In this document: in pieces, positions 5,630 to 51,020 of the stretch | Numbering within the stretch: the first letter of the stretch is position 1 | Layout: each line of letters starts with the position of its first letter | Source of the DNA: Escherichia coli | GTDB taxonomy: Bacteria > Pseudomonadota > Gammaproteobacteria > Enterobacterales > Enterobacteriaceae | Assembly (NCBI RefSeq): GCF_001677475.2 | Contig: NZ_CP015229.1 | Length of the DNA: 64,000 nt | Direction: 5' to 3' (one strand) | Position numbers and translations under genes: made by a program | Notes under the pieces: generated by a model | Told to the model about the DNA's origin: nothing | Database searches by the model: none | The model's input: only the letters and a program-made list of their open reading frames with translations

Positions 5630-7572
5630 CGCCTTTGCTCGAATTAAAGGATATTCGTCGCAGCTATCCTGCCGGTGATGAGCAGGTTGAGGTGCTGAAG
5701 GGCATCACCCTCGATATTTATGCGGGTGAGATGGTAGCGATTGTTGGCGCTTCGGGTTCCGGTAAATCGACCCTGATGAATATTCTCGGCTGTCTGGATA
5801 AGGCCACCAGCGGCACCTATCGCGTCGCCGGTCAGGATGTTGCCACGCTGGACGCCGATGCGCTGGCGCAACTGCGCCGCGAGCATTTCGGCTTTATTTT
5901 CCAGCGTTACCATTTGCTTTCGCATTTAACCGCCGAGCAGAACGTTGAAGTACCCGCCGTCTATGCCGGTCTTGAGCGGAAACAGCGGCTGCTTCGCGCC
6001 CAGGAGTTACTGCAACGACTGGGGCTGGAAGACCGTACAGAGTATTATCCGGCACAGCTTTCGGGCGGTCAGCAACAGCGCGTCAGCATCGCGCGGGCAT
6101 TGATGAACGGCGGTCAGGTAATTCTTGCCGATGAACCGACCGGCGCACTGGACAGCCATTCTGGCGAAGAGGTGATGGCGATCCTGCATCAGCTGCGCGA
6201 TCGCGGGCATACGGTGATTATCGTCACCCACGATCCGCAGGTCGCTGCTCAGGCTGAGCGGGTGATCGAAATTCGCGACGGCGAAATTGTGCGCAATCCT
6301 TCCGCCATTGAAAAAGTGAATGTTGCTGGCGGGACGGAACCTGTTGTCAACACGGCGTCTGGCTGGCGGCAGTTTGTCAGCGGTTTTAACGAGGCGCTGA
6401 CGATGGCATGGCGGGCGCTGGCAGCGAATAAAATGCGTACTTTACTGACCATGCTGGGTATTATTATCGGTATTGCGTCGGTGGTTTCCATTGTCGTGGT
6501 GGGTGACGCCGCCAAACAAATGGTGCTGGCGGATATTCGTTCTATTGGTACGAATACTATTGATGTCTATCCCGGGAAAGATTTTGGCGATGACGATCCG
6601 CAATATCAGCAGGCGCTGAAGTACGATGACTTAATCGCCATCCAAAAACAACCGTGGGTCGCCTCAGCCACACCTGCCGTCTCGCAAAACCTGCGCCTTC
6701 GTTATAACAATGTTGATGTTGCTGCCAGTGCCAATGGCGTGAGCGGCGATTATTTTAATGTCTATGGCATGACCTTCAGTGAAGGGAACACCTTTAATCA
6801 GGAGCAGCTGAACGGTCGTGCGCAGGTCATGGTTCTCGACAGTAATACTCGCCGCCAGCTTTTCCCCCATAAAGCAGATGTGGTTGGCGAGGTGATTCTG
6901 GTCGGCAATATGCCCGCCAGAGTCATTGGTGTGGCGGAAGAAAAACAGTCGATGTTTGGTAGCAGTAAAGTGCTGCGTGTCTGGCTACCTTACAGCACAA
7001 TGTCCGGGCGAGTTATGGGCCAGTCGTGGCTTAACTCCATTACTGTCAGGGTGAAAGAAGGATTTGACAGCGCCGAGGCGGAACAGCAACTCACGCGTTT
7101 ACTTTCACTGCGCCACGGAAAGAAGGATTTCTTTACCTGGAACATGGACGGCGTCTTGAAAACTGTTGAAAAGACCACACGTACTTTACAACTGTTTCTG
7201 ACGCTGGTGGCGGTGATTTCGCTGGTGGTGGGCGGTATTGGTGTAATGAATATTATGCTGGTGTCAGTGACCGAGCGGACGCGGGAAATTGGCATTCGCA
7301 TGGCTGTAGGTGCGCGAGCAAGCGATGTTTTGCAACAGTTCCTGATCGAAGCCGTACTGGTTTGCCTGGTCGGTGGCGCGTTGGGAATAACACTGTCACT
7401 GTTAATTGCTTTCACCTTGCAGCTTTTCTTACCCGGCTGGGAGATTGGTTTTTCACCGTTGGCGCTGCTGCTGGCGTTTCTCTGCTCGACGGTCACCGGG
7501 ATTTTATTTGGCTGGTTACCCGCACGAAATGCGGCACGACTGGATCCAGTAGATGCTCTGGCACGAGAGTAA
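5626..7572 (+). CDS. macB: Macrolide export ABC transporter MacB (fused ATPase/permease)
   Basis: 648-aa ORF. Walker [13 protein letters not shown] signature LSGGQQQR, Walker [12 protein letters not shown], followed by a FtsX-like permease domain. Confidence 0.95.
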
Positions 7573-32347: not shown

Positions 32348-33778
32348 ATGGCTGGGAATGTTCAGGAAAAACAGCTGCGATGGTACAACATTGCGCTGAT
32401 GTCTTTTATCACTGTCTGGGGTTTTGGCAACGTTGTTAATAACTACGCCAACCAGGGGCTGGTGGTTGTTTTTTCATGGGTGTTTATCTTTGCGCTCTAT
32501 TTCACACCTTATGCGCTAATTGTTGGCCAGTTAGGCTCGACCTTCAAAGATGGGAAGGGCGGGGTCAGTACCTGGATTAAACACACGATGGGACCCGGAC
32601 TGGCTTACCTCGCCGCGTGGACCTACTGGGTAGTGCATATTCCCTATCTGGCACAAAAACCCCAGGCAATACTGATTGCGCTCGGTTGGGCGATGAAAGG
32701 CGACGGTTCGCTAATCAAAGAATATTCAGTCGTAGCGTTACAGGGGTTAACGCTGGTGCTGTTTATCTTCTTTATGTGGGTTGCTTCACGCGGTATGAAA
32801 TCGCTGAAAATCGTCGGTTCTGTGGCAGGGATTGCGATGTTTGTTATGTCGCTCCTGTATGTGGCGATGGCGGTAACCGCGCCTGCGATTACTGAAGTGC
32901 ATATTGCGACCACAAACATTACCTGGGAAACGTTCATTCCTCATATCGACTTTACCTACATTACCACTATTTCAATGCTGGTTTTCGCGGTTGGCGGAGC
33001 AGAGAAGATTTCTCCTTACGTTAATCAAACGCGCAACCCAGGAAAAGAATTTCCAAAAGGGATGTTATGCCTGGCGGTGATGGTTGCGGTTTGTGCCATT
33101 CTGGGCTCACTGGCGATGGGGATGATGTTTGACTCGCGTAATATCCCGGATGACTTAATGACTAACGGTCAGTATTACGCCTTTCAGAAGCTGGGCGAGT
33201 ATTACAACATGGGTAATACTTTAATGGTGATTTATGCCATTGCGAATACCCTGGGACAAGTAGCTGCGCTGGTATTCTCGATTGATGCACCGCTTAAAGT
33301 GTTATTAGGCGATGCCGACAGCAAATATATTCCAGCAAGTTTATGTCGTACCAACGCTTCTGGTACGCCCGTTAATGGCTATTTTCTGACCCTGGTGCTG
33401 GTGGCGATCCTGATAATGCTACCGACTCTCGGCATTGGTGATATGAACAATCTCTATAAATGGCTGTTGAATCTTAACTCGGTAGTGATGCCGCTGCGTT
33501 ATTTGTGGGTATTTGTTGCGTTTATTGCTGTCGTTCGCCTGGCGCAGAAATATAAACCAGAGTATGTCTTTATTCGTAATAAGCCGATGGCAATGACCGT
33601 CGGGATATGGTGTTTTGCCTTTACCGCTTTTGCATGCCTGACAGGAATTTTCCCTAAAATGGAAGCCTTCATTGCAGAGTGGACATTCCAATTGGCACTG
33701 AACATTACTACGCCATTTGTCCTCGTTGGACTGGGGCTGATATTCCCGCTGCTTGCACGTAAAACGAATACAAAATAG
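32348..33778 (+). CDS. ycaM: APC-family amino-acid/polyamine transporter YcaM
   Basis: ORF 32156..33778. Start taken at MAGNVQEKQLRWYNIALMSF (476 aa), preceded by aagga. Polytopic membrane protein. Confidence 0.88.
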   Translation: MAGNVQEKQLRWYNIALMSFITVWGFGNVVNNYANQGLVVVFSWVFIFALYFTPYALIVGQLGSTFKDGKGGVSTWIKHTMGPGLAYLAAWTYWVVHIPYLAQKPQAILIALGWAMKGDGSLIKEYSVVALQGLTLVLFIFFMWVASRGMKSLKIVGSVAGIAMFVMSLLYVAMAVTAPAITEVHIATTNITWETFIPHIDFTYITTISMLVFAVGGAEKISPYVNQTRNPGKEFPKGMLCLAVMVAVCAILGSLAMGMMFDSRNIPDDLMTNGQYYAFQKLGEYYNMGNTLMVIYAIANTLGQVAALVFSIDAPLKVLLGDADSKYIPASLCRTNASGTPVNGYFLTLVLVAILIMLPTLGIGDMNNLYKWLLNLNSVVMPLRYLWVFVAFIAVVRLAQKYKPEYVFIRNKPMAMTVGIWCFAFTAFACLTGIFPKMEAFIAEWTFQLALNITTPFVLVGLGLIFPLLARKTNTK

Positions 33779-33785
33779 TCATCAT

Positions 33786-33803
33786 GCCCCGGTTCGCCGG
33801 GGC
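33786..33803 (+). terminator. Hairpin just downstream of ycaM (weak terminator candidate)
   Basis: gccccgg-ttcg-ccggggc perfect inverted repeat 8 bp after the ycaM stop; no clear U-tract. Confidence 0.35.
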
Positions 33804-34875
33804 TGTGATATCAAATAGACTAAAATTAGATCAGGCCTGATAAGGCAAAAGTTAAGTTTTTCTTAAGAGATGAAAGAAAATCAACGCTACCGTGATAATA
33901 CGAATTTTAGTTATCGGAGACCATTATTTTTAGATATGGTGATAGTTTTAATTATTGGTTATTTTGCAAGTTATTATTTTGGGCTCTGGAGTAAACTCTT
34001 GCGCATAGTAATAACATGATTTTTACGGCTAAATTTTCAACAAAGATTGGTAATGTAAACTCGTATTTTTTGATTTGCATCAATGAATTCGCACGTTGCT
34101 AATTATGGTTAAATTTGCTGAGAATGATTGCGGTTATTGTTTGGATATGCAGATGGTATATTGATTCACTGGCGTAATATTCTGTAAAAATTATATTTTA
34201 TAGTGTTTTAATCTGGCAAAAATCATCTCCCGACAGAATCTTCTCATGCCTGGTGTAGTTCACAGTCTTTTGTTTTAAAAATAAAATAGTGCTCTAATGT
34301 TGCATCTATTGTTTTATCGAGCGTGTGTTCCTGAAAATATTTATCTGTTAGGTTGATGGACAAATTACAGCCTGGGCAGTGAAATTTTCACGATCACTTT
34401 CTGACTAAATCTTACTTTAAGGTTACTGATTAATATATTTGGGCTAAGAGAGTCGTATTACACATGTCTCAAAAAAGATAAATAAACAGAAAGGATTACT
34501 CACAATAGATACTAATAACACTTTTGGATAGTTATAGAGTAGAAGCCACGACTCAGCAGGATGTAGTAGCTGTGTTGTTATAAGTTAATTTTTTCATGGC
34601 TAAATTATTTCGTTGAAAAATTAACGAAAGGCGGTAGCGTGGGTGAAAGATACAAAATGAGTGTTACATATAACAATATTACCTTGGTTAAAATAGAATG
34701 AATGATAATCACCTGTGGAAATTAAGAAAAAAGTAATCTTCTCATCATGATATATTTTTTATATGGAATAGTGAAATTAATAAAATCATAAAGAGGAGAG
34801 CAACATCGTCTAATATACAGAACGTTATACGATATGATATGAAGCTATTAATAACATTTTAGTCAGAATACCAGT

Positions 34876-37224
34876 ATGTATAGCATTACCGAAAAATTAA
34901 ACTCAAGATTTAACACTGCGGTTATATTAGCTGTTACTGTCTATATTGTCTTGTCATTTATTACCGCAATTGATTTCCATAAAAAAATAGCAGAAAACTC
35001 TGCACAGATTAACCTTATACTCATCAATAACAATTTGAATAATTTTTTTTCTAAAGTTGAAAAAGAGGCTGATGCATTAAAAGATGCAATCTATCTGTTA
35101 CATGATGAAGATGAAATAAAGCGAGCAGTCCTTCATCGCATGAAAAAAATAGACGCGGTTAATTTAGTAGGGATAATGCTCAATAATGGAAAATATCTTA
35201 GCTTTATTCGAACTGAGAATGGGGAGGTAAAATTTCTGGGGCAATCAGAACCCGGTAAACCTTTTATTGGTGACGATGGTGATATCAGCGATAACTACTT
35301 TAATCCGGAATCACGCCCATGGAATAAATTACCGAGGGGGACTTATTCAAAATGGTCACCATGGTATAATTGTTATGGTATTGCCGGAAAAAAATGTTTT
35401 TCGTTTTCACTACGACCATCCGAAGAAGAAAAAAATTCATTTGCTTTGAAGTTAATACATCTGGATGTTGATGAAAAATATTTCAGTAATTTTTTAAATA
35501 AACTGGGTGGTGATTCTGATATTTTATTCATGGAACAAAACAAAAGGATTATGGTGGGTAATGAAAAATCAATGTTACATCTTATTGTCCGTGATTTATC
35601 GGGAAGTTATAACATAAGCAATAATAGTGGCAACTATACAGACAATGTTATCTCACTCCCCTGGCTTCCTGATGTCAGATTCCATTATTTCCACTATCAA
35701 AAATCAGAAGATACAAACATCAATAAATATTTTACACTGATGTTTTTATGTGGCTTGGTTTGTTTCTGTTTATTATGGTATATCGTTGAAAAAATAACAA
35801 GAAAAATCAAAGGTGAATCCAGCAAACTGATAGAACATCTGAAAAAATTAGCTAATTCAGTATATCGCAACGACACAATTGATATTGTGCAAAATGACAG
35901 TGGTGAGATTGTTGAACTCAAAAAGATCATTAATAATATCAGCGATAAATACAAGGAGCGTATGGACCGATTACTTAATCTTGTGTCCTATGAACAAGGA
36001 AGTTGCTTTTATATTAATAAGGCTATTATTGAAACTAATAATAAAACCTATTTGGCAATTGGTATGCTTTGCATCTATGGATTAGAGTTTGTTGAAGCGG
36101 TATATGGAAATCAGAAATTTCATGAGATTTTTAATGATATAAAATCTAAGATATCACAAAAATATTCAAAATATTGTGATATCGTAAAAATCTCAACTGA
36201 AACATACTTGTTGCTATGTCACACTGATTGCGAAGAGTTCATCGAAAAATTATCGGTTTTAAACTTTCCTGAACATATATTTTGCATAAGAAATATATAT
36301 ATCCACAAGATTGCCATTTGCGAAAATTTTTCAGGGGAAAATGTATCGATTTATGAAAGGAAACTGAAACTGGCATTAACAGCTATGCGGGAAAATAAAG
36401 AATCTGAATTTATTTTTTATGATGACATCAAAGTCCATGAACTTGATCAAAAGGTCTGGGTGGCAGGAAATATAAAAAAAGCGATTGCGAGTAATGAGCT
36501 TTATTTAGTATATCAACCGATTGTTGATATGGATAATAATAGGGTTGTAGGCGCAGAGGCGTTATGTCGCTGGTTGTCCTGCGAAAATGGGGTAATACCG
36601 CCATCAATTTTTGTACCTGTTGCTGAAGAAATAGGATTAATTAAAGAACTGGGTGATTTTGTTCTCGAAACAGCTATTAGCGAATTTGGGGTGTTTAGTT
36701 GTGAATATGAGGTTGCTAACGATTTTCTCCTGCATATCAATGTTTCTCCCTGGCAATTAAATGAATTTGACTTCCACACTCGTGTTCTTACTTTAATTAA
36801 TGCATTTGGTGTAAATGTTGAACAAATCTGCCTGGAGATCACCGAATCAGCAGTAAAAGATATAAATGATAGCTTTTACAATAATATAAATATTTTAAAA
36901 GAAAATGGTATCAAGATTTCCCTTGATGATTTCGGAAGTGGATTAGCTGACCTGAAAAAACTTTATAAAGTAAGACCTGATAGCATTAAAATTGATTCAG
37001 AGTTTACCTCTGGTATTTTCGATGAAACTAACAAGGTTGTATATTTTATATCCAATCTTGCTCGTGAAGAAAATATGCCGGTAATAGCTGAAGGTGTTGA
37101 AACTGAAAGTCAGGCTAGAGAGTTGCAAAAATTAGGATTTTCTCATGTTCAGGGATACTTATACCAGAAACCGTTACCGTTTTCAGAATGGCATATAGAC
37201 AACAAACCGAAAAAAAGAAAATAA
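34876..37224 (+). CDS. Membrane-bound c-di-GMP phosphodiesterase: TM, periplasmic sensor domain, TM, cytoplasmic linker region, EAL domain
   Basis: 782 aa. Hydrophobic helices near residues 15-35 and ~285-305. EAL-domain motifs all present: QPIVD, EALCRW, NVSP, LEITES, DDFGSG, KIDSEF, AEGVETE, QGYLY. No GG(D/E)EF signature upstream of the EAL domain. Confidence 0.85.
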   Translation: MYSITEKLNSRFNTAVILAVTVYIVLSFITAIDFHKKIAENSAQINLILINNNLNNFFSKVEKEADALKDAIYLLHDEDEIKRAVLHRMKKIDAVNLVGIMLNNGKYLSFIRTENGEVKFLGQSEPGKPFIGDDGDISDNYFNPESRPWNKLPRGTYSKWSPWYNCYGIAGKKCFSFSLRPSEEEKNSFALKLIHLDVDEKYFSNFLNKLGGDSDILFMEQNKRIMVGNEKSMLHLIVRDLSGSYNISNNSGNYTDNVISLPWLPDVRFHYFHYQKSEDTNINKYFTLMFLCGLVCFCLLWYIVEKITRKIKGESSKLIEHLKKLANSVYRNDTIDIVQNDSGEIVELKKIINNISDKYKERMDRLLNLVSYEQGSCFYINKAIIETNNKTYLAIGMLCIYGLEFVEAVYGNQKFHEIFNDIKSKISQKYSKYCDIVKISTETYLLLCHTDCEEFIEKLSVLNFPEHIFCIRNIYIHKIAICENFSGENVSIYERKLKLALTAMRENKESEFIFYDDIKVHELDQKVWVAGNIKKAIASNELYLVYQPIVDMDNNRVVGAEALCRWLSCENGVIPPSIFVPVAEEIGLIKELGDFVLETAISEFGVFSCEYEVANDFLLHINVSPWQLNEFDFHTRVLTLINAFGVNVEQICLEITESAVKDINDSFYNNINILKENGIKISLDDFGSGLADLKKLYKVRPDSIKIDSEFTSGIFDETNKVVYFISNLAREENMPVIAEGVETESQARELQKLGFSHVQGYLYQKPLPFSEWHIDNKPKKRK

Positions 37225-37228
37225 AGCA

Positions 37229-38569
37229 ATGTTCAAATATAAAAAAAAGGCGGCAGTGATCTGTTTTTTGTATTTTTTGTGCGTCGCTGTAGTAACTTGT
37301 TATTTGTACACCATTCATGTTAAAGGCCGTATAAATTCGGTGAAGGTATCTATTGTAGATAGTGGGCTTGCAATAGCTAATGTTTCTGAGTATCGCCGCT
37401 CAGTATCTAATAATATATTTTATGAACTTGAGGTTTCGCCAGAAGAGTTGTTAAAAAAAATACGCAATAGCTTTGCTGGCTATGAAAACCCTGGATATTT
37501 GTATGATCTCGGTCCTTATATGATTAGCGATGGTAAATGTATCAAAGTCACAACGAAAGGAGATAATTTTTGTGACGACATAGTTTCCTCTATTAGGGTA
37601 ATTAATGAATTTGAAAGAGGCATTATTAGCTTAAAAAATAAGTGCTATGTTTATTATGCTCATCCCATTGCAAAACGTACAAGTTTGATATCAGTGGTAG
37701 ATCCTGAACGTTATTTATCTTTGATAAGAAATCAATCAGGGGAACGAGAAGATATCTATGTATCATTTTATGATATTAATGATAATGAAAAGAAAATCGC
37801 AGGTGATGATTTTTTGATAAATGATGCAGTATTTGAGATGTCAGCTATCACTCTGTCGTATTCTTATCTTCCAGAAATGATGTTTATTGTTGCCTATAAA
37901 AAAAGTAAATATCTATATATATGTGCGTTTTTCGTTTTTGCATCGGCAATATCTGCAGTCATAATGTATGTTTATTATGTTAAATTATTGCGTGATATTA
38001 TAAATAAGGGTAGATTGGAAAAAGAATCTATATTGTCGAATCATCAATATGATTTACGTGGAGAAAATCTATTCTTTAATACGGAAGAGATTAATGCAAT
38101 TCGAGAGATATATGACTTTGGCACTTGTGATGCATTAACCAGGGCTTCTGGTCGCCGGAGTTTTGATAAAGAAATCAAGATACTGAGAAAAAATTTTGGC
38201 TACCTGTGTCTATTTGATGTGGATAAATTTAAAACCATTAATGATAAGTTTGGTCATTTATTTGGTGATGAAGTACTCATCAAACTTGTTAATATCATTA
38301 AAGAAGAGTTACCCCGTCGTGAAGGGGAAATATACCGGTTTGGCGGTGATGAGTTTGCTATTATTTATTATGAGAAAGATAAAAATAAGCTATCAAGAAT
38401 TTTGCACAGAGTTGTTCATTTCGCCATTGGTGGGTTAAATTGTAGTTGCAGTATAGGTGTTGCCAGCACAGATGAGTGCATGAATAACATTGAACGGTTG
38501 AAATTGCTGGCAGATGAACGGTTATATAAAAGTAAGCAAAATGGCCGAGCACAGATAACGTGGTGTTGA
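37229..38569 (+). CDS. Membrane-bound diguanylate cyclase: TM, periplasmic sensor domain, TM, GGDEF domain
   Basis: 446 aa, starting 5 bp after the upstream stop. Two hydrophobic helices flank a ~200-aa periplasmic segment. GGDEF-domain motifs: DALT..RR, LFDVDKFKTINDKFGH, GDEVL, RFGGDEFAIIY, ADERLYKSKQNGR. No RxxD inhibitory site immediately upstream of GGDEF. Confidence 0.85.
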   Translation: MFKYKKKAAVICFLYFLCVAVVTCYLYTIHVKGRINSVKVSIVDSGLAIANVSEYRRSVSNNIFYELEVSPEELLKKIRNSFAGYENPGYLYDLGPYMISDGKCIKVTTKGDNFCDDIVSSIRVINEFERGIISLKNKCYVYYAHPIAKRTSLISVVDPERYLSLIRNQSGEREDIYVSFYDINDNEKKIAGDDFLINDAVFEMSAITLSYSYLPEMMFIVAYKKSKYLYICAFFVFASAISAVIMYVYYVKLLRDIINKGRLEKESILSNHQYDLRGENLFFNTEEINAIREIYDFGTCDALTRASGRRSFDKEIKILRKNFGYLCLFDVDKFKTINDKFGHLFGDEVLIKLVNIIKEELPRREGEIYRFGGDEFAIIYYEKDKNKLSRILHRVVHFAIGGLNCSCSIGVASTDECMNNIERLKLLADERLYKSKQNGRAQITWC

Positions 38570-38653
38570 TATTTTAATTTGCATGGCATTGGTCATCGAT
38601 GTTTACAAAAATCACACAGTTCAAGTTATATTATTAATGAATCGTTAAGTGCA

Positions 38654-40768
38654 ATGCTCATAAAAAATAAAGTAATATTAAACAAAATCCTTTTGGTTGT
38701 TGCTATACTGCTATGTTTTGTTTTTTTATCAATTGTTGAACAGCCCCTTGGATTTTATCAACAAACATTATTTTCAATTATTATTTGTATCGCTGCTATC
38801 TTCCTTAATTTTCTCAAAGGAAGGATAATTACTCTGATTCTAATGGGTGTTGGAATACTCATATCATCCCGATATCTATGGTGGCGTTACTCTTCTTCAG
38901 TAATCCTGGATGAATTTCCAGACTGTTTATTTTCAGTCACGCTATTAGTTGCTGAGACGTATGCATGGTTTGTTTTATTACTTGGTTACTTTCAGGTTTG
39001 CTTCCCGCTGAACCGAGAAAGTATACCCTTACCAGAGAATAAAGAAGAATGGCCCGTTGTTGATATATTAATCCCCACATATAACGAACCCTTTACAGTC
39101 GTTAAGAATACAGTTTATGGTGCGTTGGCCTTAGACTGGCCAACGGATAAATTAAATATCTGGCTCCTTGATGATGGCGCCAGGGACGAGTTCAGGAAAT
39201 TCGCGAACGAGTTAGGTATTTACTATGTCGCAAGAGAAACACATGAACATGCTAAGGCCGGAAATATAAATAATGCGCTTAAAATAGCTAATGGCGAATT
39301 TGTTGCTATTTTCGATTGCGATCATATACCCTCGGTTTCTTTTTTAAAGAAAACGATGGGCTGGTTTATCGCCGATAAAAAATTATCGATGTTGCAAACA
39401 CCACATCATTTTTTTTCCCCCGACCCTTTTGAGCGAAATTTGGGGCAGTTTCGGCAAAAGCCAAATGAAGGACACCTTTTTTATGGGTTAATCCAGAATG
39501 GTACGGATACATGGAATGCTTCATTTTTTTGTGGTTCATGTGCAATCATCCGTAGATCTGCTCTGGATGAGGTTGGAGGCATTGCAGTCGAAACAGTAAC
39601 AGAAGATGCGCATACGTCGTTACGCTTGCATCGTGCAGGTTATAGCTCTGCGTATCTTCGCTATCCTCTGGCTGCCGGGCTAGCCACCGAAACATTGTCT
39701 GCTCATATTGGACAACGGATTCGGTGGGCTCGAGGCATGATTCAAATCTTGCGTATTGACAATCCATTATTGGGCAAGGGGCTGACATTATCACAGCGCC
39801 TTTGCTATCTCAGCAGCATGATGCATTTTTTATCAGGTGTGCCACGCCTGATTTTCTTGTTCGCACCGTTATGTCCTATTTTCTTTTCGGTCAATCTGAT
39901 CGATGCATCAGTTGCAGATATTATGTCTTATGTTTTACCTTATCTATTTGTTATTATTTTAACTAATTCAAGAGTACAAGGTAAATACAGACATTCATTC
40001 TGGAATGAGATTTATGAAATGGTTCTGGCCTGGTATATTACGCTACCAACGCTTGTAGCTTTACTTGCGCCAGCAAAAGGTCGTTTTAACGTTACGGCCA
40101 AAGGGGGACTGATAAAAAATAAGTTTGTTGACTGGCGAATTTCCTATCCCTATCTTATTTTTGCTATTTTAAATGTAATCGGGCTGATAATAGGTGTTAT
40201 TAATGTTTATAGTTTGCAAGGGCATATTGCCATCTTGAATTTGTTTTGTTTAATCTGGTTGTTTTATAACGCAATTATTATTGGCGCAACTTTGGCTGTT
40301 TCTATTGAACAAAAGCAGGTGCGTTTTTCTCCCCGTATTGATGTTTCTTTCAAGGGCGTTATACAACTGGATGATGGACGGCGCTATCCTTGTTCTGTTC
40401 TTGATTTTTCCGAAGGAGGATTAGGTGTAATCCTTGATAATATCTCCGACGTAAAAGATATGCTTAAAGCACAGCAATTGTCTCTTTATCTGGATGATAG
40501 CAACGGGAAATGTGATATTCCGGTAGAAATAGTTCATGCTTACAATAATAAAATTGGTCTGAAGATTATGCCAATGAGTTATGAACAAAGTGTTAATTAT
40601 GTAAGAGCAACGTTTTCTCGTGATTCATTATGGCAAGAGTGGAATAATAAAATTAGACGGGACAATATTCTAAAGAGTTTTTTTGAAATATGTTTCATCT
40701 CTCTGAAAGGTTATTGCAATATGGTTTTTTATATTCTGCGGACACTGAAAAGCAGTTCCAAAAGTTAG
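38654..40768 (+). CDS. BcsA-like family-2 processive beta-glycosyltransferase with C-terminal PilZ domain (c-di-GMP-gated synthase)
   Basis: ORF 38579..40768 begins with TTG; first in-frame ATG is at 38654 (704 aa). Catalytic motifs: DDGARDE, FDCDH, QTPHHFFSPDPFERN, FFCGSCA, TEDAHTSLRLH, QRIRWARG. PilZ motifs RFSPRID and DFSEGGLG. Confidence 0.85.
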   Translation: MLIKNKVILNKILLVVAILLCFVFLSIVEQPLGFYQQTLFSIIICIAAIFLNFLKGRIITLILMGVGILISSRYLWWRYSSSVILDEFPDCLFSVTLLVAETYAWFVLLLGYFQVCFPLNRESIPLPENKEEWPVVDILIPTYNEPFTVVKNTVYGALALDWPTDKLNIWLLDDGARDEFRKFANELGIYYVARETHEHAKAGNINNALKIANGEFVAIFDCDHIPSVSFLKKTMGWFIADKKLSMLQTPHHFFSPDPFERNLGQFRQKPNEGHLFYGLIQNGTDTWNASFFCGSCAIIRRSALDEVGGIAVETVTEDAHTSLRLHRAGYSSAYLRYPLAAGLATETLSAHIGQRIRWARGMIQILRIDNPLLGKGLTLSQRLCYLSSMMHFLSGVPRLIFLFAPLCPIFFSVNLIDASVADIMSYVLPYLFVIILTNSRVQGKYRHSFWNEIYEMVLAWYITLPTLVALLAPAKGRFNVTAKGGLIKNKFVDWRISYPYLIFAILNVIGLIIGVINVYSLQGHIAILNLFCLIWLFYNAIIIGATLAVSIEQKQVRFSPRIDVSFKGVIQLDDGRRYPCSVLDFSEGGLGVILDNISDVKDMLKAQQLSLYLDDSNGKCDIPVEIVHAYNNKIGLKIMPMSYEQSVNYVRATFSRDSLWQEWNNKIRRDNILKSFFEICFISLKGYCNMVFYILRTLKSSSKS

Positions 40769-40833
40769 TTCTAATTTCTGACTGCTAATTAAATATATTG
40801 TTTGTGTTTATTATGGTTGTTGAATTTTTTAAA

Positions 40834-43134
40834 ATGGAAAGAAAATTTTTGAGATTAAGTGCTGCGATAATTGGCTTGGGGTTATTATGTTTTTACCAGG
40901 CAAATACAGCATCGGCTACAGATACAGTAACCAGTAAGTCTTCCTCTGGAGAAGTATTACCATCTATCCAGAAGACAAATATCTCTGCTTATGAGAAAGA
41001 GTCGTCTCGCCATTTTAAACTCCCATTTACACAAATCGCACCAGCTCCAGGAAACATAGTCCTGAATGGCGTTAACCCACAGGGGCAAATTGAGTTTGGT
41101 ATGCGTAGCGATGAAATAGTATCAGAAGCAAAACTAAAACTTGAATACACTACATCACCGTCGCTGATCCCTGTCCAGTCACAGCTTAAGGTCTATCTTA
41201 ATGACGAGTTGATGGGGGTATTGCCGATTACCAAAGAACAACTGGGGAAGAAAACGCTGGCGGAAATAACTCTTAACCCATTGTATTTTTCTGATTTTAA
41301 TCGCTTGCGCCTCGAATTAATTAGTCACTACCAGAGCGCCTGTGAAAACCCGACCAGCAGCAATTTGTGGCTTGATATTGGACGTACCAGTGAACTTGAA
41401 CTGGTATTTCAGAGACTTAATCTGAAAAATGATCTTTCATATTTTCCTGTACCGTTTTTTGACCCGCGAGATAACCGCACTAATACATTGCCGATGGTTT
41501 TTGCAGGTACTCCTGAGACTGGTTTGCAGCAGGCATCAGCTATTGTCGCTTCGTGGTTTGGTGCGCAATCTGGCTGGCGTGGTCACCGATTTCCGGTTTT
41601 CTATAACCAGTTACCGGAAAGTAATGCAGTGGTCTTTGCCACTAACAATAGACGCCCGGACTTTCTGCGCGAGCATCCGTTGGTGAATGCGCCTGTTATT
41701 AAAATGATCAGTCATCCACAAAATCCTTTTATCAAATTGCTGGTACTTTTGGGCCGCGATGACAAAGATTTATTACAGGCGGCAAAAGGCCTTGCACAGG
41801 GAAATATACTTTTTCGCGGCGATAGTGTGATCGTAAATGAAGTGACGCCGTTACTGCCGCGTAAACCTTATGATGCGCCAAACTGGGTACGCACTGACCG
41901 TCCTGTAACTTTCGCAGAGCTTAAAAATTATGAAGGGCAGTTACAGGCAAGTGGCCTGGAGTCTGCGGCAATTAATGTTTCATTTAATTTGCCACCTGAT
42001 CTTTTTCTATTGCGTAATCGTGGGGTTGATATGAAGATTAACTATCGCTATACCACGCCAACGATAGGTGGTTCACGCATGGATGTCAGCCTTAATAACC
42101 AGTACCTTGAATCTTTCCGGCTAAGTCCGCAATCTGCTACCGATAGATTGTTGTTACGTTTACCGTTATTGCAAGAATTGTTGGATGGTAATAATGGAAT
42201 TACCATTCCTGCGCTGACGTTGGGGGCGCTTAATCAATTGCGATTTAATTTTGAGTACATTAATACAATGCCGCGTTCTGATGCTGATAGCTGTATTATT
42301 TCCAGGCCTCTAAAAAATCATGCGGTTATTGCAGATGATTCCACTATCGATTTTTCAAAGTACCATCACTTTATCGCAATGCCAGATTTACGCGCTTTTG
42401 CCAGCTCAGGCTTTCCATTTAGCCGCATGGCCGATCTATCAGAAACGGTTGTGGTTATGCCTGAAAATCCTGGTACAACGCAAGTTGAAACATTATTAAA
42501 TACCCTTGGACTGATTGGTGCTCAAACTGGATTTCCGGCAATTAATCTGACAATTACTGATGATATAGGTTCTGTCCAGGGTAAGGATTCAGATATTCTG
42601 CTTATAGGAACACTTCCGCAAGAATTTGCAGATAAACAGCAAATTAATCTGCTCATTGAGGCAACAACGAGTTGGGTAAAAAGCCCAATGCGGAACACTG
42701 ATTACGCAAAAATTATGGCAGATAAAAACGATCAAAAACCTGAAATACAAACAACTATAAATTCCCCATTGCCAATGGCGGCGATAGTTGGTTTTCAGTC
42801 CCCATATCATGCCCAACGTAGCGTAATTGCTTTAATGTCCGAGGGATCACGCGGCGATACGCTACTCAACAATGCGTTAATTAATAGTACAAAACGCGGC
42901 AATATTTTTGGTTCAGTCGCGGTTATTCGCGAATCTGGCGTCAATAGTTTACAGGTTGGAGATACTTATTACGTTGGGCATCTCCCCTGGATTGAACGAG
43001 TGCAATATGTGTTAGCCAGACACCCCATTCTACTGGCAGTCCTGGCAACTCTCAGTGTGGTGCTATTGGCGTGGGTAGTATGGCGTCTGTTACGTAACAT
43101 TAGTCGCCGTCGTCTGAACCCTCATCAACAGTAA
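40834..43134 (+). CDS. BcsB-like periplasmic synthase subunit with C-terminal membrane anchor
   Basis: ORF 40798..43134 begins with TTG; start taken at MERKFLRLSAAIIGLGLLCFYQANTASA (signal-peptide-like). C-terminal single TM helix ILLAVLATLSVVLLAWVVWRLL followed by basic residues, as in BcsB. Confidence 0.8.
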   Translation: MERKFLRLSAAIIGLGLLCFYQANTASATDTVTSKSSSGEVLPSIQKTNISAYEKESSRHFKLPFTQIAPAPGNIVLNGVNPQGQIEFGMRSDEIVSEAKLKLEYTTSPSLIPVQSQLKVYLNDELMGVLPITKEQLGKKTLAEITLNPLYFSDFNRLRLELISHYQSACENPTSSNLWLDIGRTSELELVFQRLNLKNDLSYFPVPFFDPRDNRTNTLPMVFAGTPETGLQQASAIVASWFGAQSGWRGHRFPVFYNQLPESNAVVFATNNRRPDFLREHPLVNAPVIKMISHPQNPFIKLLVLLGRDDKDLLQAAKGLAQGNILFRGDSVIVNEVTPLLPRKPYDAPNWVRTDRPVTFAELKNYEGQLQASGLESAAINVSFNLPPDLFLLRNRGVDMKINYRYTTPTIGGSRMDVSLNNQYLESFRLSPQSATDRLLLRLPLLQELLDGNNGITIPALTLGALNQLRFNFEYINTMPRSDADSCIISRPLKNHAVIADDSTIDFSKYHHFIAMPDLRAFASSGFPFSRMADLSETVVVMPENPGTTQVETLLNTLGLIGAQTGFPAINLTITDDIGSVQGKDSDILLIGTLPQEFADKQQINLLIEATTSWVKSPMRNTDYAKIMADKNDQKPEIQTTINSPLPMAAIVGFQSPYHAQRSVIALMSEGSRGDTLLNNALINSTKRGNIFGSVAVIRESGVNSLQVGDTYYVGHLPWIERVQYVLARHPILLAVLATLSVVLLAWVVWRLLRNISRRRLNPHQQ

Positions 43135-43246
43135 TTCATCATCATTTCTATTTTGCGGCTCCATTCTGTCCTGACTTTATACAGGCAGGGAGCTGCGCCC
43201 GTTCTGTTTTTAATAAAAAGTGAGTTAACACCTGATTGAGGCAGGC

Positions 43247-46200
43247 ATGTACAAATTCACCCTAAATTTACTCACAATATCCCTTGGTTTGGCGGTAATG
43301 TCGATGGCGAAAGCCACACCAACTGTACACAAGCTGTTAATGGCGCAGATTCGGTTAGGCGAAGACATTCATCGTGAAGATCTGGTCGAACAGTCGCTTT
43401 ATCGTCTTGAATTGGCGGAACCTGATAATCCAGATGTCGTTGCGGCGCGTTTTCGCTATCTGCTGCGTAAGGGGGATATTGAAGGTGCGCAAAAACAACT
43501 TGCCAGACTTTCCCTGTTCGCTCCTGATTCAAAAATATATAAAGCATCGCGCACGGCCATGCGACTTTCTTCGCCTGAGGGGCGTCAGGCACTGCAAATG
43601 GCACGCTTACAAGCTATCTCCGGGCGACATAAAGAGGCTATCGACAGTTACGACAAGCTATTTAACGGGGCACCGCCAGATATCGAAATGGCGCTGGAAT
43701 ACTGGGGGGCAATGACGCAAATTTCCTCCCGTCGCAACGAAGCGATTCGTCAGTTGAAAATACTTAATATTGATAATCCTGACTCTGGTGCCATATTTGG
43801 GGCGCTGGGGCAGGCGTATTCCCAGAATGGCGATCGCGCTAATGCGGTGGCGAATCTGGAAAAAGCCCTCGCACTGGATCCGCACAGCAGCAACAACGAC
43901 AAATGGAACAGTCTGCTGAAGGTGAATCGCTACTGGCTGGCGATCCAGCAGGGCGATGCTGCGCTGAAAGCCAATAATCCTGACCGCGCAGAGCGTCTGT
44001 TCCAGCAGGCGCGCAATGTCGATAACGCCGACAGCTATGCGGTGCTGGGGCTGGGCGATGTGGCGATGGCGCGCAAAGATTACCCCGCCGCCGAACGTTA
44101 TTATCAGCAGACGCTGCGTATGGACAGCGGCAACACCAACGCCGTGCGCGGGCTGGCGAATCTTTATCGCCAGCAGTCGCCGGAAAAAGCCGAAGCGTTT
44201 ATTGCCTCGCTCTCTGCCAGCCAGCGGCGCAGCGTTGATGACATCGAACGCAGCCTGCAAAACACGCGTTTATCACAGCAGGCAGAGGCACTGGAAAATC
44301 AGGGTAAATGGGCGCAGGCGGCAGCACTTCAGCGCCAGCGACTGGCGCTCGATCCCGGCAGTGTGTGGATTACTTACCGGCTTTCGCAGGATCTCTGGCA
44401 GGCCGGACAACGCAGCCAGGCCGATACGTTAATGCGCCATCTGGCGCAGCAGAAGCCGAACGACCCGGAGCAGGTTTACGCTTACGGGCTGTATCTCTCT
44501 GGTCATGACCAGGACAGAGCGGCGCTGGCGCATATCAACAGCCTGCCGCGCGCGCAATGGAACAGCAATATTCAGGAGCTGGTTAATCGACTGCAAAGCG
44601 ATCAGGTGCTGGAAACCGCTAATCGCCTGCGAGAAAGCGGCAAAGAAGCTGAAGCGGAAGCGATGCTGCGCCAACAACCACCTTCCACGCGTATTGATCT
44701 CACGCTGGCTGACTGGGCGCAACAACGACGTGATTATACCGCCGCCCGCGCTGCATATCAGAATGTCCTGATGCGGGAGCCAACTAACGCCGATGCCATT
44801 CTTGGTCTGACGGAAGTGGATATTGCTGCCGGTGACAAAGCGGCAGCACGTAGCCAGCTGGCGAAACTGCCTGCCACCGATAACGCGTCGCTGAACACTC
44901 AGCGGCGCGTGGCGCTGGCACAGGCGCAGCTTGGCGATACCGCAGCGGCGCAGCAGACGTTTAATAAGTTGATCCCGCAGGCAAAATCTCAGCCGCCGTC
45001 GATGGAAAGCGCGATGGTGCTGCGCGACGGTGCGAAGTTTGAAGCGCAGGCGGGCGATCCAAAGCAGGCGCTGGAAACCTACAAAGACGCCATGGTCGCA
45101 TCCGGTGTGACTACGACGCGTCCGCAGGATAACGACACCTTTACCCGACTGACCCGTAACGATGAGAAAGATGACTGGCTGAAGCGCGGTGTGCGCAGCG
45201 ACGCGGCAGATCTCTATCGTCAGCAGGATCTTAACGTCACCCTTGAGCACGACTACTGGGGATCGAGTGGCACCGGTGGTTACTCCGACCTGAAAGCGCA
45301 CACTACCATGTTGCAGGTGGATGCTCCGTATTCTGACGGGAGGATGTTCTTTCGCAGTGATTTCGTCAATATGAACGTCGGCAGTTTCTCCACTAATGCC
45401 GATGGCAAATGGGATGACAACTGGGGCACCTGTACATTACAGGACTGTAGTGGCAACCGCAGCCAGTCGGACTCCGGTGCCAGCGTGGCGGTCGGCTGGC
45501 GAAATGACGTCTGGAGCTGGGATATCGGTACCACGCCGATGGGCTTCAACGTGGTGGATGTGGTCGGCGGCATCAGTTACAGCGATGATATCGGGCCGCT
45601 GGGTTACACCGTTAACGCCCACCGTCGGCCCATCTCCAGTTCTTTGCTGGCCTTTGGTGGGCAAAAAGACTCTCCGGGCAATACCGGGAAAAAATGGGGT
45701 GGCGTGCGTGCCGACGGCGTGGGGCTAAGCCTGAGCTACGATAAAGGTGAAGCAAACGGCGTCTGGGCATCGCTTAGCGGTGACCAGTTAACCGGTAAAA
45801 ATGTCGAAGATAACTGGCGCGTGCGCTGGATGACGGGCTATTACTATAAGGTCATTAACCAGAACAATCGCCGCGTCACAATCGGCCTGAACAACATGAT
45901 CTGGCATTACGACAAAGATCTGAGTGGCTACTCACTCGGTCAGGGCGGTTACTACAGTCCGCAGGAATACCTGTCGTTTGCCATACCGGTGATGTGGCGG
46001 GAGCGCACGGAAAACTGGTCGTGGGAGCTGGGTGCATCTGGCTCGTGGTCGCATTCGCGCACCAAAACCATGCCGCGTTATCCGCTGATGAACCTGATCC
46101 CGACGGACTGGAAAGAGGATGCCGCCAGCCAGACCAACGACGGCGGCAGCAGTCAGGGCTTTGGCTACACGGCGCGGGCGTTACTTGAGCGTCGCGTCAC

Positions 46201-46354
46201 GTCCAACTGGTTTGTCGGCACGGCGATTGATATCCAGCAGGCGAAAGATTATGCGCCAAGCCATTTCCTGCTCTACGTGCGGTATTCCGCCGCCGGATGG
46301 CAGGGCGACATGGATTTACCGCCGCAGCCGCTGATACCTTACGCCGACTGGTAA
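43247..46354 (+). CDS. BcsC-like outer-membrane export component (signal peptide, TPR repeats, C-terminal beta-barrel)
   Basis: 1035 aa. Signal peptide MYKFTLNLLTISLGLAVMSMAKA; SD gaggcagg upstream. Many TPR-like repeats (e.g. GALGQAYSQNGDRANAVANLEKALALDP); C-terminal Gly/aromatic-rich region ending in W (...LIPYADW). GC content rises sharply after the first ~0.6 kb. Confidence 0.85.
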   Translation: MYKFTLNLLTISLGLAVMSMAKATPTVHKLLMAQIRLGEDIHREDLVEQSLYRLELAEPDNPDVVAARFRYLLRKGDIEGAQKQLARLSLFAPDSKIYKASRTAMRLSSPEGRQALQMARLQAISGRHKEAIDSYDKLFNGAPPDIEMALEYWGAMTQISSRRNEAIRQLKILNIDNPDSGAIFGALGQAYSQNGDRANAVANLEKALALDPHSSNNDKWNSLLKVNRYWLAIQQGDAALKANNPDRAERLFQQARNVDNADSYAVLGLGDVAMARKDYPAAERYYQQTLRMDSGNTNAVRGLANLYRQQSPEKAEAFIASLSASQRRSVDDIERSLQNTRLSQQAEALENQGKWAQAAALQRQRLALDPGSVWITYRLSQDLWQAGQRSQADTLMRHLAQQKPNDPEQVYAYGLYLSGHDQDRAALAHINSLPRAQWNSNIQELVNRLQSDQVLETANRLRESGKEAEAEAMLRQQPPSTRIDLTLADWAQQRRDYTAARAAYQNVLMREPTNADAILGLTEVDIAAGDKAAARSQLAKLPATDNASLNTQRRVALAQAQLGDTAAAQQTFNKLIPQAKSQPPSMESAMVLRDGAKFEAQAGDPKQALETYKDAMVASGVTTTRPQDNDTFTRLTRNDEKDDWLKRGVRSDAADLYRQQDLNVTLEHDYWGSSGTGGYSDLKAHTTMLQVDAPYSDGRMFFRSDFVNMNVGSFSTNADGKWDDNWGTCTLQDCSGNRSQSDSGASVAVGWRNDVWSWDIGTTPMGFNVVDVVGGISYSDDIGPLGYTVNAHRRPISSSLLAFGGQKDSPGNTGKKWGGVRADGVGLSLSYDKGEANGVWASLSGDQLTGKNVEDNWRVRWMTGYYYKVINQNNRRVTIGLNNMIWHYDKDLSGYSLGQGGYYSPQEYLSFAIPVMWRERTENWSWELGASGSWSHSRTKTMPRYPLMNLIPTDWKEDAASQTNDGGSSQGFGYTARALLERRVTSNWFVGTAIDIQQAKDYAPSHFLLYVRYSAAGWQGDMDLPPQPLIPYADW

Positions 46355-46395
46355 TGAGGTAGAATCAGAAGGTTAAAACTCGGAAATTAAATCCA

Positions 46396-46438
46396 GTAAA
46401 TCAGCGTCGAGCATGTTCTTAACGCTGATTTACTTTTT
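46396..46438 (+). terminator. Intrinsic terminator after the BcsC-like gene (may also serve convergent pflA)
   Basis: gtaaatcagcgt...acgctgatttac inverted repeat followed by ttttt, 42 bp after the stop at 46354. Confidence 0.65.
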
Positions 46439-46488
46439 ACTACTAAAGGAAGGGGTGGCAGGTCGGAATTCAGCCTGCACATGATGTT

Positions 46489-47229
46489 TTAGAACATCAC
46501 TTTATGACCATATTGCTCAAGAATCCCTTTCACTCGCTCCATGGTTTCTTTTTTCGGTGGTTTCACACCGTCGAGTTTGTACTCTTCGCCCATCGCCACC
46601 CACTTATGTTTGCCTAACTCATGGTAGGGGAGGAGCTCGATTTTTTCGACGTTACCCATATCGCGAGTAAATTCACCGAGGCGATGAGCTGAATCGTCAT
46701 CGTCAGACCAGCCAGGTACTACGACATAACGTATCCAGACTTTCACATTTTTGTTCGCCAGATATTTAGCAAACTCGAGTGTACGATGGTTGGAAACGCC
46801 TACCAGATTCTGGTGGATTTCGTCGTTCATCTGTTTGAGATCGAGCATTACCAGGTCGGTCACTTCCAGAAGTTCATCAATTACTGGATCGTAACGACGA
46901 ACAAAACCGTTAGTGTCCAGACAGGTATGAATGCCTTCTTTTTTGCAGGCGCGGAACCAGTCGCGAACGAACTCGGCTTGCAGGATTGCTTCACCACCGG
47001 ATGCGGTAACGCCGCCGCCGGAAGCGTTCATAAAGTGGCGATAGGTCACCACTTCCTTCATTAAATCTTCAACGGTAACTTCTTTACCGCCATGCGTATC
47101 CCAGGTGTCGCGGTTATGACAATACAGGCAGCGCATCAGGCAGCCCTGGAAAAAGGTGATAAAGCGAATACCCGGGCCGTCTACGGTTCCACAGGATTCA
47201 AAGGAGTGAATGCGACCAATAACTGACAT
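46489..47229 (-). CDS. pflA: Pyruvate formate-lyase activating enzyme (radical SAM)
   Basis: ORF 46489..47256. Start taken at [23 protein letters not shown] (246 aa). Radical-SAM CxxxCxxC motif ([12 protein letters not shown]). Confidence 0.95.
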
Positions 47230-47352
47230 TGCGGTGTTTCTCCAGATGTGGCCCATCTGAGGCCGTGTTGGTGCGCAGCTCGAAGGCTACGTCGAGTCTG
47301 TTTTGGCAGTCACCTTAAAGTATAGATAGCTGACAAAAAAGGCTCTCGTGCT

Positions 47353-47378
47353 AAAAAAGGCCCCACTTTCGTGGAGCC
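47353..47378 (-). terminator. Putative intrinsic terminator downstream of pflB
   Basis: Hairpin ggccccac-tttc-gtggagcc preceded on the plus strand by aaaaaa (a U-run on the minus transcript), about 45 bp past the pflB stop. Confidence 0.55.
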
Positions 47379-47420
47379 TTTATTGTACGCTTTTTACTGT
47401 ACGATTTCAGTCAAATCTAA

Positions 47421-49703
<2,283 letters not shown>

Positions 49704-50688: not shown

Positions 50689-51020
50689 TATCTCGCCTGG
50701 CTTATAGGCCCGTAACTCGCATGGTTTTTATGCAAATACGGAGTAAATATTTGATTATCCAAATAAAAATAAATTTTAAAAATTAACAAATGAGTTGAAT
50801 TTTTTCCGCATCCTCCGCTAAAACAGTTAATTAAAAGGGAGCATCAGACAAATAAAGCAACAATATCGATCGTATTTATTAAATACAAATTACCGATATT
50901 TAACTTTATAATTACAATTATTTTATTAATGCAAATATATGTAAAGCGGGGCATTAAAAAAACGCCCCGTAATATAACTCAGACGAATCATTAAGCCTAC
51001 ATTGCGTAGGCTATTTGATT

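Follow-up and report, generated by a model that had tools for sequence, protein, structure and literature searches.

Cellulose is a major component of the biofilm matrix and an anti-virulence factor in Escherichia coli and Salmonella. The core E. coli system is the class II locus bcsRQABZC/bcsEFG, which produces phosphoethanolamine (pEtN)-cellulose and needs BcsQ and BcsR. Here we describe an accessory bcs locus in a 64,000-nucleotide (nt) stretch of E. coli contig NZ_CP015229.1 (assembly GCF_001677475.2), called the window below. It lies in a 12.7-kb insert between ycaM and pflA that encodes a cyclic di-GMP (c-di-GMP) phosphodiesterase, a diguanylate cyclase, and homologs of BcsA, BcsB, and BcsC.

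Three accessory bcs clusters in E. coli were reported by the Römling laboratory in 2025 (Hosseinpourlamardi ... Römling, bioRxiv 10.1101/2025.05.09.653004). Among these, bcs3 is chromosomal and contains bcsABC only, and its BcsA lacks ∼150 amino acids (aa) at the N terminus and ∼30 aa at the C terminus and shows ∼41% full-length identity to BcsA1. Homologs of YliE and YliF lie directly upstream and were proposed to regulate the synthase. The BcsA3 class was found to be restricted to Escherichia, E. marmotae included, unmodified cellulose was suggested as the product, and BcsC was stated to cluster concordantly with BcsA. The main text of the preprint contains none of the terms “pflA,” “ycaM,” “recombin-,” “chimer-,” or “GC content,” and “mosaic” appears only as a question. 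In E. coli, the N-terminal domain of BcsA recruits the pEtN transferase BcsG, secretion of cellulose requires cellulase activity, yet unrelated cellulases suffice, and every BcsB contact of BcsC is made by its first tetratricopeptide repeat (TPR#1) through Q30, Q34, L37, Q49, R53, L56, and I57 (Verma et al. 2024, PMC11379886).

The cluster in the window is a member of the chromosomal bcs3 class and was therefore already described, and RefSeq already names its synthase genes bcsA, bcsB, and bcsC, which removes the novelty that an earlier note on this DNA had implied. Its BcsA is ∼41% identical to core BcsA over 872 aa with both terminal gaps, bcsABC are the only bcs genes present, the locus is chromosomal, and PdeI- and DgcI-like genes (40% and 42% identity) adjoin it. 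The BcsA3 assignment was made via 73% identity to the BcsA2 reference, the position of this BcsA in the only other Escherichia-restricted cluster, and the membership of E. marmotae, rather than via the BcsA3 reference HDP8224287.1. We consider it likely that the insert is an intact bcs3 accessory cellulose synthase operon that replaces ycaN-ycaK at a fixed chromosomal site and that functions and evolved as set out below. This view is carried by observed gene content, motifs, selection, a mosaic gene, recombination tracts, and co-occurrence with a core bcs locus. What is new here is incremental but useful: that bcsC is chimeric, that a bcsZ relic remains, that the site is fixed, and that the module spreads by recombination.

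Gene content of the ycaM-pflA insert

Over its whole length, the window aligns colinearly to positions 914,631 to 967,852 of E. coli K-12 at 97 to 98% identity, and the ycaM-pflA interval is the sole large difference. Homology to K-12 ends at 33777 in the ycaM stop codon and restarts at 46489 in the pflA stop codon, placing the junctions exactly at both stops. K-12 has ycaN and ycaK (1.68 kb) in this interval; both are absent here, as the earlier note had stated, with no tblastn match to YcaN or YcaK at E < 1 anywhere in the window. The insert contains five plus-strand open reading frames (ORFs) at 34876-37224, 37229-38569, 38579-40768, 40798-43134, and 43247-46354. Their reading in that note as EAL, GGDEF, BcsA with PilZ, BcsB, and BcsC proteins agrees with ORF calls, Pfam, and NCBIfam, and the Pfam and hidden Markov model searches supported the GGDEF, EAL, GT2, PilZ, BcsB, and BcsC/TPR assignments alike. 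RefSeq models of homologs indicate that bcsA likely starts at ATG 38654 rather than at TTG 38579, where its ORF opens, and bcsB at ATG 40834 rather than TTG 40798. With these starts the intergenic gaps are 4, 84, 65, and 112 nt, so that the operon-like spacing noted before stands, while the gap range of 5 to 112 bp given with it does not.

bcsA (38654-40768, plus strand) encodes a 704-aa protein of the BcsA3 class with Pfam GT2, Cellulose_synt, and PilZ (E = 1.2e−10) domains. NCBIfam equivalog models for BcsA, BcsB, and BcsC all score above their cutoffs, with BcsA at 1015 bits against NF008558 (cutoff 992) and 844 bits against TIGR03030 (cutoff 699). The GT2 motifs LDDG, DCD, FFCGS, TED, and QRIRW are found in all alleles and are identical to those of K-12 BcsA. 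The PilZ motifs RFSPR and DFSEGG are also present and predict c-di-GMP binding. The protein lacks both terminal extensions of core BcsA, including the ∼150-aa N-terminal domain, and is 52% (52.5%) identical to K-12 BcsA over 690 aligned aa, which corresponds to ∼41% of 872. It is 73% identical to the BcsA2 reference WP_074014783.1. Among 5.8 billion proteins, this lineage comprises only three 90% clusters at ≥73% identity, and the remaining matches, at ≤56%, are core enterobacterial BcsA, in agreement with 10.1101/2025.05.09.653004. bcsB (40834-43134, plus strand) encodes a 766-aa protein (PF03170, E = 8e−214; 1189 bits against NF008325, cutoff 922) that ends in a hydrophobic helix forming the membrane anchor, ILLAVLATLSVVLLAWVVW, and is 65% identical to the core BcsB of K-12.

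The two upstream genes encode paralogs of K-12 PdeI (YliE) and DgcI (YliF). The phosphodiesterase (34876-37224, plus strand, 782 aa; Pfam and NCBIfam) has a CHASE9 periplasmic sensor (E = 7e−42), a degenerate GGDEF domain (STETY), and an EAL domain (E = 8.5e−65), and is 40% identical to K-12 PdeI over its full length, with dN/dS, the ratio of nonsynonymous (dN) to synonymous (dS) substitution rates, of 0.09 to 0.15. The EAL residues are intact (EALCR561, N622, E654/E657, DDFG684, K705, EGVE739, and Q759), and the motifs EALCR, HINVS, LEITES, DDFG, IKID, EGVE, and VQGY are kept in all alleles, predicting activity. Loop 6 reads GSGLADL, similar to GTGLSNL in K-12 PdeI. The cyclase (37229-38569, plus strand, 446 aa; Pfam GAPES2, E = 5.5e−41, and GGDEF, E = 1.8e−24) is 42% identical to K-12 DgcI with dN/dS of ∼0.13, and its GGDEF372 A-site and metal-binding motif, FDVDKFKTINDKFGH, likewise predict activity. 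The I-site RxxD is missing (RREG), as it is in K-12 DgcI, and is not a defining feature. A literature search on earlier names of the two regulators found nothing relevant.

From 5′ to 3′ over positions 34876 to 46354, GC content rises through 33, 33, 38, 43, 48, and 59%, and identity to the core paralogs climbs in parallel through 40, 42, 52, 65, 65, and 96%. Only the last GC step (48 to 59%) is explained by the core-type sequence of the 3′ part of bcsC described below. It is unusual that BcsB is closer to its core counterpart than BcsA is.

Purifying selection and coexistence with the core locus

None of the five ORFs is disrupted in the window or in strains N3, E7-1N7, or E69. Across these genes, dN/dS is 0.04 to 0.31 at dS of up to 0.75. 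Between the window and E7-1N7, dS is 0.5 to 0.75 with dN/dS of 0.06 to 0.14, while the flanking gene ycaD has a dS of 0.014. Low dN/dS at dS of 0.5 to 0.75 is evidence of long-term purifying selection and argues against a dead relic, expression aside. Both N3 and E7-1N7 contain the module at ycaM-pflA together with complete bcsEFG/bcsRQABZC at the usual place. With a BcsA only 52% identical to the core protein and both loci in each of these genomes, the module is separate from the canonical bcs locus, as the earlier note had held.

bcsC is a chimera and bcsZ a relic

BcsC has a BCSC_C domain (E = 1.4e−119) and multiple TPRs in Pfam and scores 1892 bits against NF008520. Its gene consists of two parts. 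The 5′ part (43247-43798, plus strand) is of the accessory type and encodes the signal peptide and TPR#1, the BcsB-docking repeat; codons 1 to 171 are 71% identical to the core gene in nucleotides and ∼65% in amino acids, the level seen for BcsB, with a dS of 1.35. The 3′ part (43799-46354, plus strand, 852 codons) encodes further TPRs and the BCSC_C beta-barrel. These last 2.55 kb, 82% of the gene, are of the core type, with 95 to 96% nucleotide and 96 to 98% amino acid identity to the core bcsC of essentially every E. coli and a dS of 0.21. At the junction, 122 core codons (residues 177 to 298, ∼3.6 TPRs) are missing. Relative to the core genes, synonymous sites are saturated in bcsA and bcsB, and the drop in dS from ≥1.35 to 0.21 within bcsC indicates that the step reflects recombination, not constraint. 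The concordant clustering of BcsC with BcsA stated in 10.1101/2025.05.09.653004 fails for 82% of the window gene. The junction is the same in all four of the chromosomal alleles, which points to one founding recombination event.

The 3′ part in the window is patchy: 43812-44553 resembles the accessory gene of E69, 44580-46035 resembles E. coli core alleles, and 46039-46354 is again accessory-like. Accessory copies in E. coli hosts share identical runs of 254 to 338 nt with E. coli core alleles, which exceed the permutation expectation (P ≤ 0.001). The E7-1N7 allele matches all E. coli core genes, its own included, at a uniform ∼88%. A protein search for the donor of its core-type bcsC placed this protein outside the core BcsC proteins of both E. 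coli (94.1% identity) and E. marmotae (93.1%), although far nearer to these than to Citrobacter. We read this as an old capture of Escherichia core bcsC sequence, after which short stretches were again exchanged in E. coli hosts. The accessory and core bcsC genes of N3 also share long identical runs (P = 0.001), and there are similar runs with the core gene of another strain. Exchange strictly inside one genome is thus suggestive only, and our claim is limited to exchange with E. coli-type core bcsC generally. An argument from sites private to the N3 core gene was weakened after a fourth core allele was added.

Some of the private variation of the N3 core bcsC also occurs in accessory copies, which hints at transfer from accessory to core genes. 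Within the 3′ 2.5 kb, divergence among the core bcsC alleles of E. coli reaches 3 to 4% (N3/K-12, 97.0% identity; N3/CT29, 96.1%; K-12/CT29, 98.6%; N3 copy at 24530-27085 of contig L014). A core BcsC variant of 1027 aa (P0170), found on >1000 contigs, equals K-12 BcsC minus ∼130 TPR residues in frame. Such deletions are therefore tolerated and evidently common.

The 112-nt spacer between bcsB and bcsC is filled by a relic of the 3′ end of bcsZ (43168-43246, plus strand), corresponding to approximately its last 30 codons and bearing a stop and an indel. It was found by tblastn with BcsZ residues 335 to 363 (45% identity; E = 0.02 in a small, 400-nt search space), and nucleotide alignment of the spacer to the 3′ end of core bcsZ agrees, with plain similarity. 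The relic implies that the ancestor was a bcsABZC operon like the enterobacterial core operons, from which bcsZ has since been deleted. Since there is no cellulase gene and a cellulase is needed for secretion (PMC11379886), the module is likely not self-sufficient, and most simply it probably relies on core BcsZ. The earlier note's description of the module as self-contained is unsupported or overstated, with bcsZ reduced to 80 nt and the C-terminal 850 residues of BcsC of the core type.

Accessory BcsC keeps five of the seven TPR#1 contact residues, and the changed contacts face changed BcsB residues: I57→A/V lies opposite V209→L, and Q30→L lies opposite F163→Y and I164→F. One hypothesis is that the retained accessory N terminus matches BcsC to its own BcsB while the remainder is interchangeable. 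We tentatively extend this to the proposal, against which the balance still tilts somewhat, that the chimera is maintained rather than accidental. Recurrent ectopic recombination with core bcsC would keep a common TPR-solenoid/porin export module in both systems, and selection would keep the private docking repeat (BcsC Q30L and I57A/V matched by BcsB F163Y, I164F, and V209L) that wires the accessory synthase to its own BcsB. In that case, a single cell would operate two differently regulated synthases, for pEtN-modified and unmodified polymer, through near-identical outer membrane channels, and accessory bcsC would be a reservoir that returns variation to the core gene.

A fixed site and spread by homologous recombination

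The module is present in 9 of 5,426 complete E. coli genomes, in every case at ycaM-pflA; decayed copies occur on plasmids. The window flanks are 97 to 100% identical to those of N3 and E7-1N7, while the module differs by ∼5% from that of N3 and by ∼15% from that of E7-1N7, and the divergent tract of E7-1N7 reaches into both neighboring genes at their 3′ ends (ycaM, 85%; pflA, 90%). In E69 the pattern is reversed: the upstream flanks are 83 to 93% identical to the window, and the module, from ∼33.58 to 44.55 kb, is 98.5 to 100% identical. E69 was deposited as E. coli but is a GTDB species representative for a non-coli Escherichia. It was the single locus found when species-representative genomes were scanned with BcsA, a type of single-protein query that reaches close relatives only.

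Genomes of the E. marmotae type carry a fourth allele (82 to 85% identity) at the same site. In these, ycaM is deleted down to approximately the first 80 nt, immediately behind which comes the module leader (contig L009, ∼5152-5166). E. marmotae was rejected as the source of the E7-1N7-type allele, to which its module is only 82.7% identical. Four contigs of this type, from independent draft assemblies (L009 to L012), all end 580 to 770 nt into bcsC, just beyond the mosaic junction, consistent with breakage because the 3′ part of bcsC is a near-exact repeat of the core bcsC of the same genome. A literature search on cellulose in E. marmotae found nothing relevant.

Together, these tracts indicate that the module is an old resident of the ycaM-pflA site in the genus and moves between lineages by homologous recombination via its conserved neighbors. 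This makes the acquisition route, which the earlier note had called unclear, visible in the shared site across Escherichia lineages, the contrast between module and flanks in E69, and the reach of the E7-1N7 tract into ycaM and pflA. It also explains why the edges are bare, an observation of that note which we can repeat. No tRNA gene was found at the insert, no integrase, transposase, or insertion sequence (IS) ORF was found among the insert ORFs, and a search for flanking direct or inverted repeats gave nothing beyond short chance matches. The features of an integrase- or IS-mediated island (integrase or transposase, tRNA target, and flanking repeats) are thus lacking.

Leader, terminators, and neighboring sequence

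A leader of 1.1 kb (33779-34875, plus strand) precedes the phosphodiesterase gene; its GC content of 31.7% confirms its earlier description as AT rich. It opens with the ycaM terminator hairpin (33786-33803). Alignment of six diverged alleles revealed two invariant blocks, ∼33850-33990 and 34588-34657, which are unchanged although the coding regions of these alleles differ with a dS of ∼0.7. The second block, of ∼70 nt, includes the palindrome TTCGTT-N8-AACGAA (34609-34628), which is followed by AGGCGGTAGCGTGGG. Further conserved stretches lie at ∼34700-34760 and in the last 45 nt upstream of the ATG. The invariant blocks probably represent a promoter, an operator, or a 5′ untranslated region element for some regulator. 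An Rfam scan of 33000-47500 at E ≤ 1 returned only a chance CRISPR-DR62 match (E = 0.95). Neither a c-di-GMP riboswitch nor another known RNA is present in the leader, which also had no match on plasmids. A 49-aa ORF within it (33870-34019) was rejected as a gene, as its reading frame is not conserved and it matches no family.

An intrinsic terminator 3′ of bcsC (46395-46438, plus strand) has a 13-bp stem followed by a T-run (fold of −38 kcal/mol, z = −3.2), and a second hairpin lies closer to pflA. Promoter and terminator consensus scans gave counts at chance level and were not used, and antisense ORFs within bcsC had no family match. Elsewhere, the window differs from K-12 by two small indels: ∼75 bp of K-12 (915,049-915,123) are missing at ∼415-418, and the copy number of an ftsK linker repeat differs at 20721-20795. 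Positions 50965 to 52464 (ycaO) are only 90 to 94% identical to N3 and E7-1N7, which are 94 to 98% identical to each other in this tract; it may be a second import, ∼4.5 kb past the module.

Proposed function and alternatives

We propose that the GAPES2-GGDEF cyclase and the CHASE9-EAL phosphodiesterase, as inner membrane paralogs of DgcI and PdeI, would set c-di-GMP in response to periplasmic signals. Binding of c-di-GMP to the PilZ domain of BcsA3 would lift auto-inhibition, and BcsA3 with BcsB3 would then polymerize UDP-glucose to a beta-1,4-glucan and pass the chain across the inner membrane. The terminal BcsB3 would dock TPR#1 of the chimeric BcsC, whose core-type TPR solenoid and beta-barrel would export the chain. 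The predicted product is unmodified cellulose, as expected of a BcsA3 without the BcsG-recruiting N-terminal domain. The cellulase for secretion would be supplied in trans, most simply by core bcsZ, the bcsZ of the module having been lost. The operon descends from a bcsABZC-type ancestor and is exchanged among Escherichia lineages by homologous recombination via conserved flanks. Core bcsC sequence has taken the place of the 3′ 2.55 kb of its bcsC and has patched this part repeatedly. Expression, the enzyme activities, the polymer, local signaling, and dependence on BcsZ are all inferred from sequence. That the regulators form a private c-di-GMP circuit for the adjacent synthase is plausible given the intact EAL, GGDEF, and PilZ motifs, the co-linear genes, and a dN/dS of ∼0.1, and the same hypothesis was put forward in 10.1101/2025.05.09.653004.

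Several observations weigh against this proposal. BcsA clears its NCBIfam cutoff only narrowly (1015 versus 992 bits), and BcsQ and BcsR are absent from the module. Accessory BcsC is 122 residues shorter in its TPR region, and export by the shortened protein is only predicted. The 386-nt identical run that the N3 accessory copy shares with the core gene of another strain weakens the case for exchange inside one genome, which is suggestive only. The core bcs locus of the window strain lies outside the window, and co-occurrence was seen in relatives only. The regulators are frameshifted in some lineages, and the tests in 10.1101/2025.05.09.653004 were confined to a bcs4 plasmid strain. Finally, the rarity of the module (9 of 5,426 genomes) and its very AT-rich 5′ end (33% GC) fit a xenogeneically silenced, dispensable locus.

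This last point leads to an alternative in which the module is a silent or decaying relic, an H-NS-silenced passenger, exchanged horizontally, that has ceased to make polymer, has lost bcsZ, and retains a short, chimeric BcsC. We regard this as unlikely. The GC content of 32 to 38% over the first 6 kb, the scarcity in E. coli, and the reduction of bcsZ to a remnant would agree with it, as would the visible decay of the plasmid relative and several frameshifts: the pdeI-like gene is broken near codon 55 in four of four E. marmotae-type contigs (L009 to L012, at 6382-6391 or, in the case of L012, 5760-5769) and again at codon 548 in L012 (7244-7246), and the dgcI-like gene is broken in the E. 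coli draft L013 (∼9268-9350). Against decay stand the five ORFs intact in the window, N3, E7-1N7, and E69, the dN/dS of 0.04 to 0.31 across dS of 0.5 to 0.75, the conservation of all motifs and of the leader blocks, and the widespread core BcsC with a 130-residue TPR deletion, by which such a deletion is tolerated. The same frameshifted contigs, L009 to L012 and L013, have intact bcsA and bcsB, which favors another possibility, that the cyclase and phosphodiesterase are no private switch but feed the global c-di-GMP pool or other targets and owe their position to common descent of a yliE-yliF cassette. The pair does mirror K-12 pdeI-dgcI, which adjoins no bcs gene, and only fragments of it persist in the plasmid bcs2 cluster. 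We nevertheless find this doubtful, because all chromosomal alleles keep the gene order and spacing (a 4-nt gap, then 84 nt before bcsA), the regulators have diverged as deeply as bcsA and bcsB, and the association is recurrent according to 10.1101/2025.05.09.653004. It is compatible with the rest of our explanation.

The product could also be a polymer other than plain cellulose, such as a mixed-linkage or otherwise modified beta-glucan. The 52% identity of BcsA to the core protein, its bare passage of the equivalog cutoff, the loss of both terminal extensions, and the absence of close relatives outside Escherichia would allow this. The full cellulose synthase motif set, including FFCGS and QRIRW identical to core BcsA, the BcsB and BcsC partners and bcsZ relic typical of cellulose operons, and the lack of any modifying enzyme in the module make it highly improbable. 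That the genes are simply the ordinary bcs locus of the organism, as the RefSeq names bcsA, bcsB, and bcsC might suggest, is refuted to near certainty: the window corresponds to K-12 914.6 to 967.9 kb and core bcs lies at 3.69 Mb, bcsQ, -R, -Z, -E, -F, and -G are missing from the module, its BcsA is 52% identical to the core protein, and N3 and E7-1N7 hold both loci. An intact accessory cellulose synthase operon remains our preferred reading.

A second, separately regulated synthase, probably for unmodified polymer, could alter biofilm behavior in its rare carrier lineages. The fixed address at ycaM-pflA means that carriers can be found by synteny. Because accessory bcsC repeats the core gene, it breaks short-read assemblies at the junction and hides the locus in short-read surveys, and the repeat will confound gene presence and phylogenetic analyses of bcsC. 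As the module has no cellulase, one has to be provided when its function is tested in bcs-deleted hosts. The locus is also a clear example of an accessory operon passing between Escherichia species purely by homologous recombination.

Comparison with known systems

The module resembles the BcsABC core of the class II system. The genes follow in the same order (A-B-[Z relic]-C), the catalytic and PilZ motifs are shared, the TPR#1 docking residues are largely kept, and the two bcsC genes are almost alike over their last 852 codons. It is not a class II operon, however, since that class is defined by bcsE and bcsG, with bcsF, bcsQ, and bcsR, and the interval contains only five ORFs and the bcsZ relic. 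The module lacks bcsQ, -R, -E, -F, and -G and a functional bcsZ, its BcsA has no BcsG-recruiting domain, BcsA and BcsB are 52% and 65% identical to their core counterparts, BcsC is 122 residues shorter, and both the locus and the regulators are different.

The regulators share architecture, gene order, and a short gap with the K-12 PdeI (YliE)/DgcI (YliF) pair, and the lengths are 782 and 446 aa here versus 782 and 442 aa in K-12. They differ in that identity is only 40 to 42%, synonymous sites are saturated, and the module pair is physically joined to a synthase operon. The local control of core BcsA by DgcC and PdeK is a conceptual parallel of a dedicated cyclase and phosphodiesterase acting on cellulose synthase.

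The bcs2 (BcsA2) plasmid clusters form a sister lineage (BcsA, 73% identity; BcsB, 60%), represented by E. coli S56 plasmid A, the source of the BcsA2 reference WP_074014783.1 (retrieved as L003). They also have EAL and GGDEF genes of the same families upstream, and on S56 plasmid A the bcsC is core-derived as well. In contrast to the module, the S56 cluster is plasmid-borne, IS-flanked, and visibly decayed, its regulator genes are in fragments, and it does not have the leader of the module. At positions 12768 to 18627 of L003, a group II intron and an IS200 element separate bcsB from a bcsZ fragment and a complete core-type bcsC (3.6 kb, 96.6% identical to the core gene). The whole core-type bcsC with a bcsZ fragment indicates an independent capture with a separate junction. 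Fragments of GspK, GspL, EAL, and GGDEF genes lie upstream on this plasmid. From the bcs3 class itself, as described in 10.1101/2025.05.09.653004, the cluster in the window differs in nothing essential.

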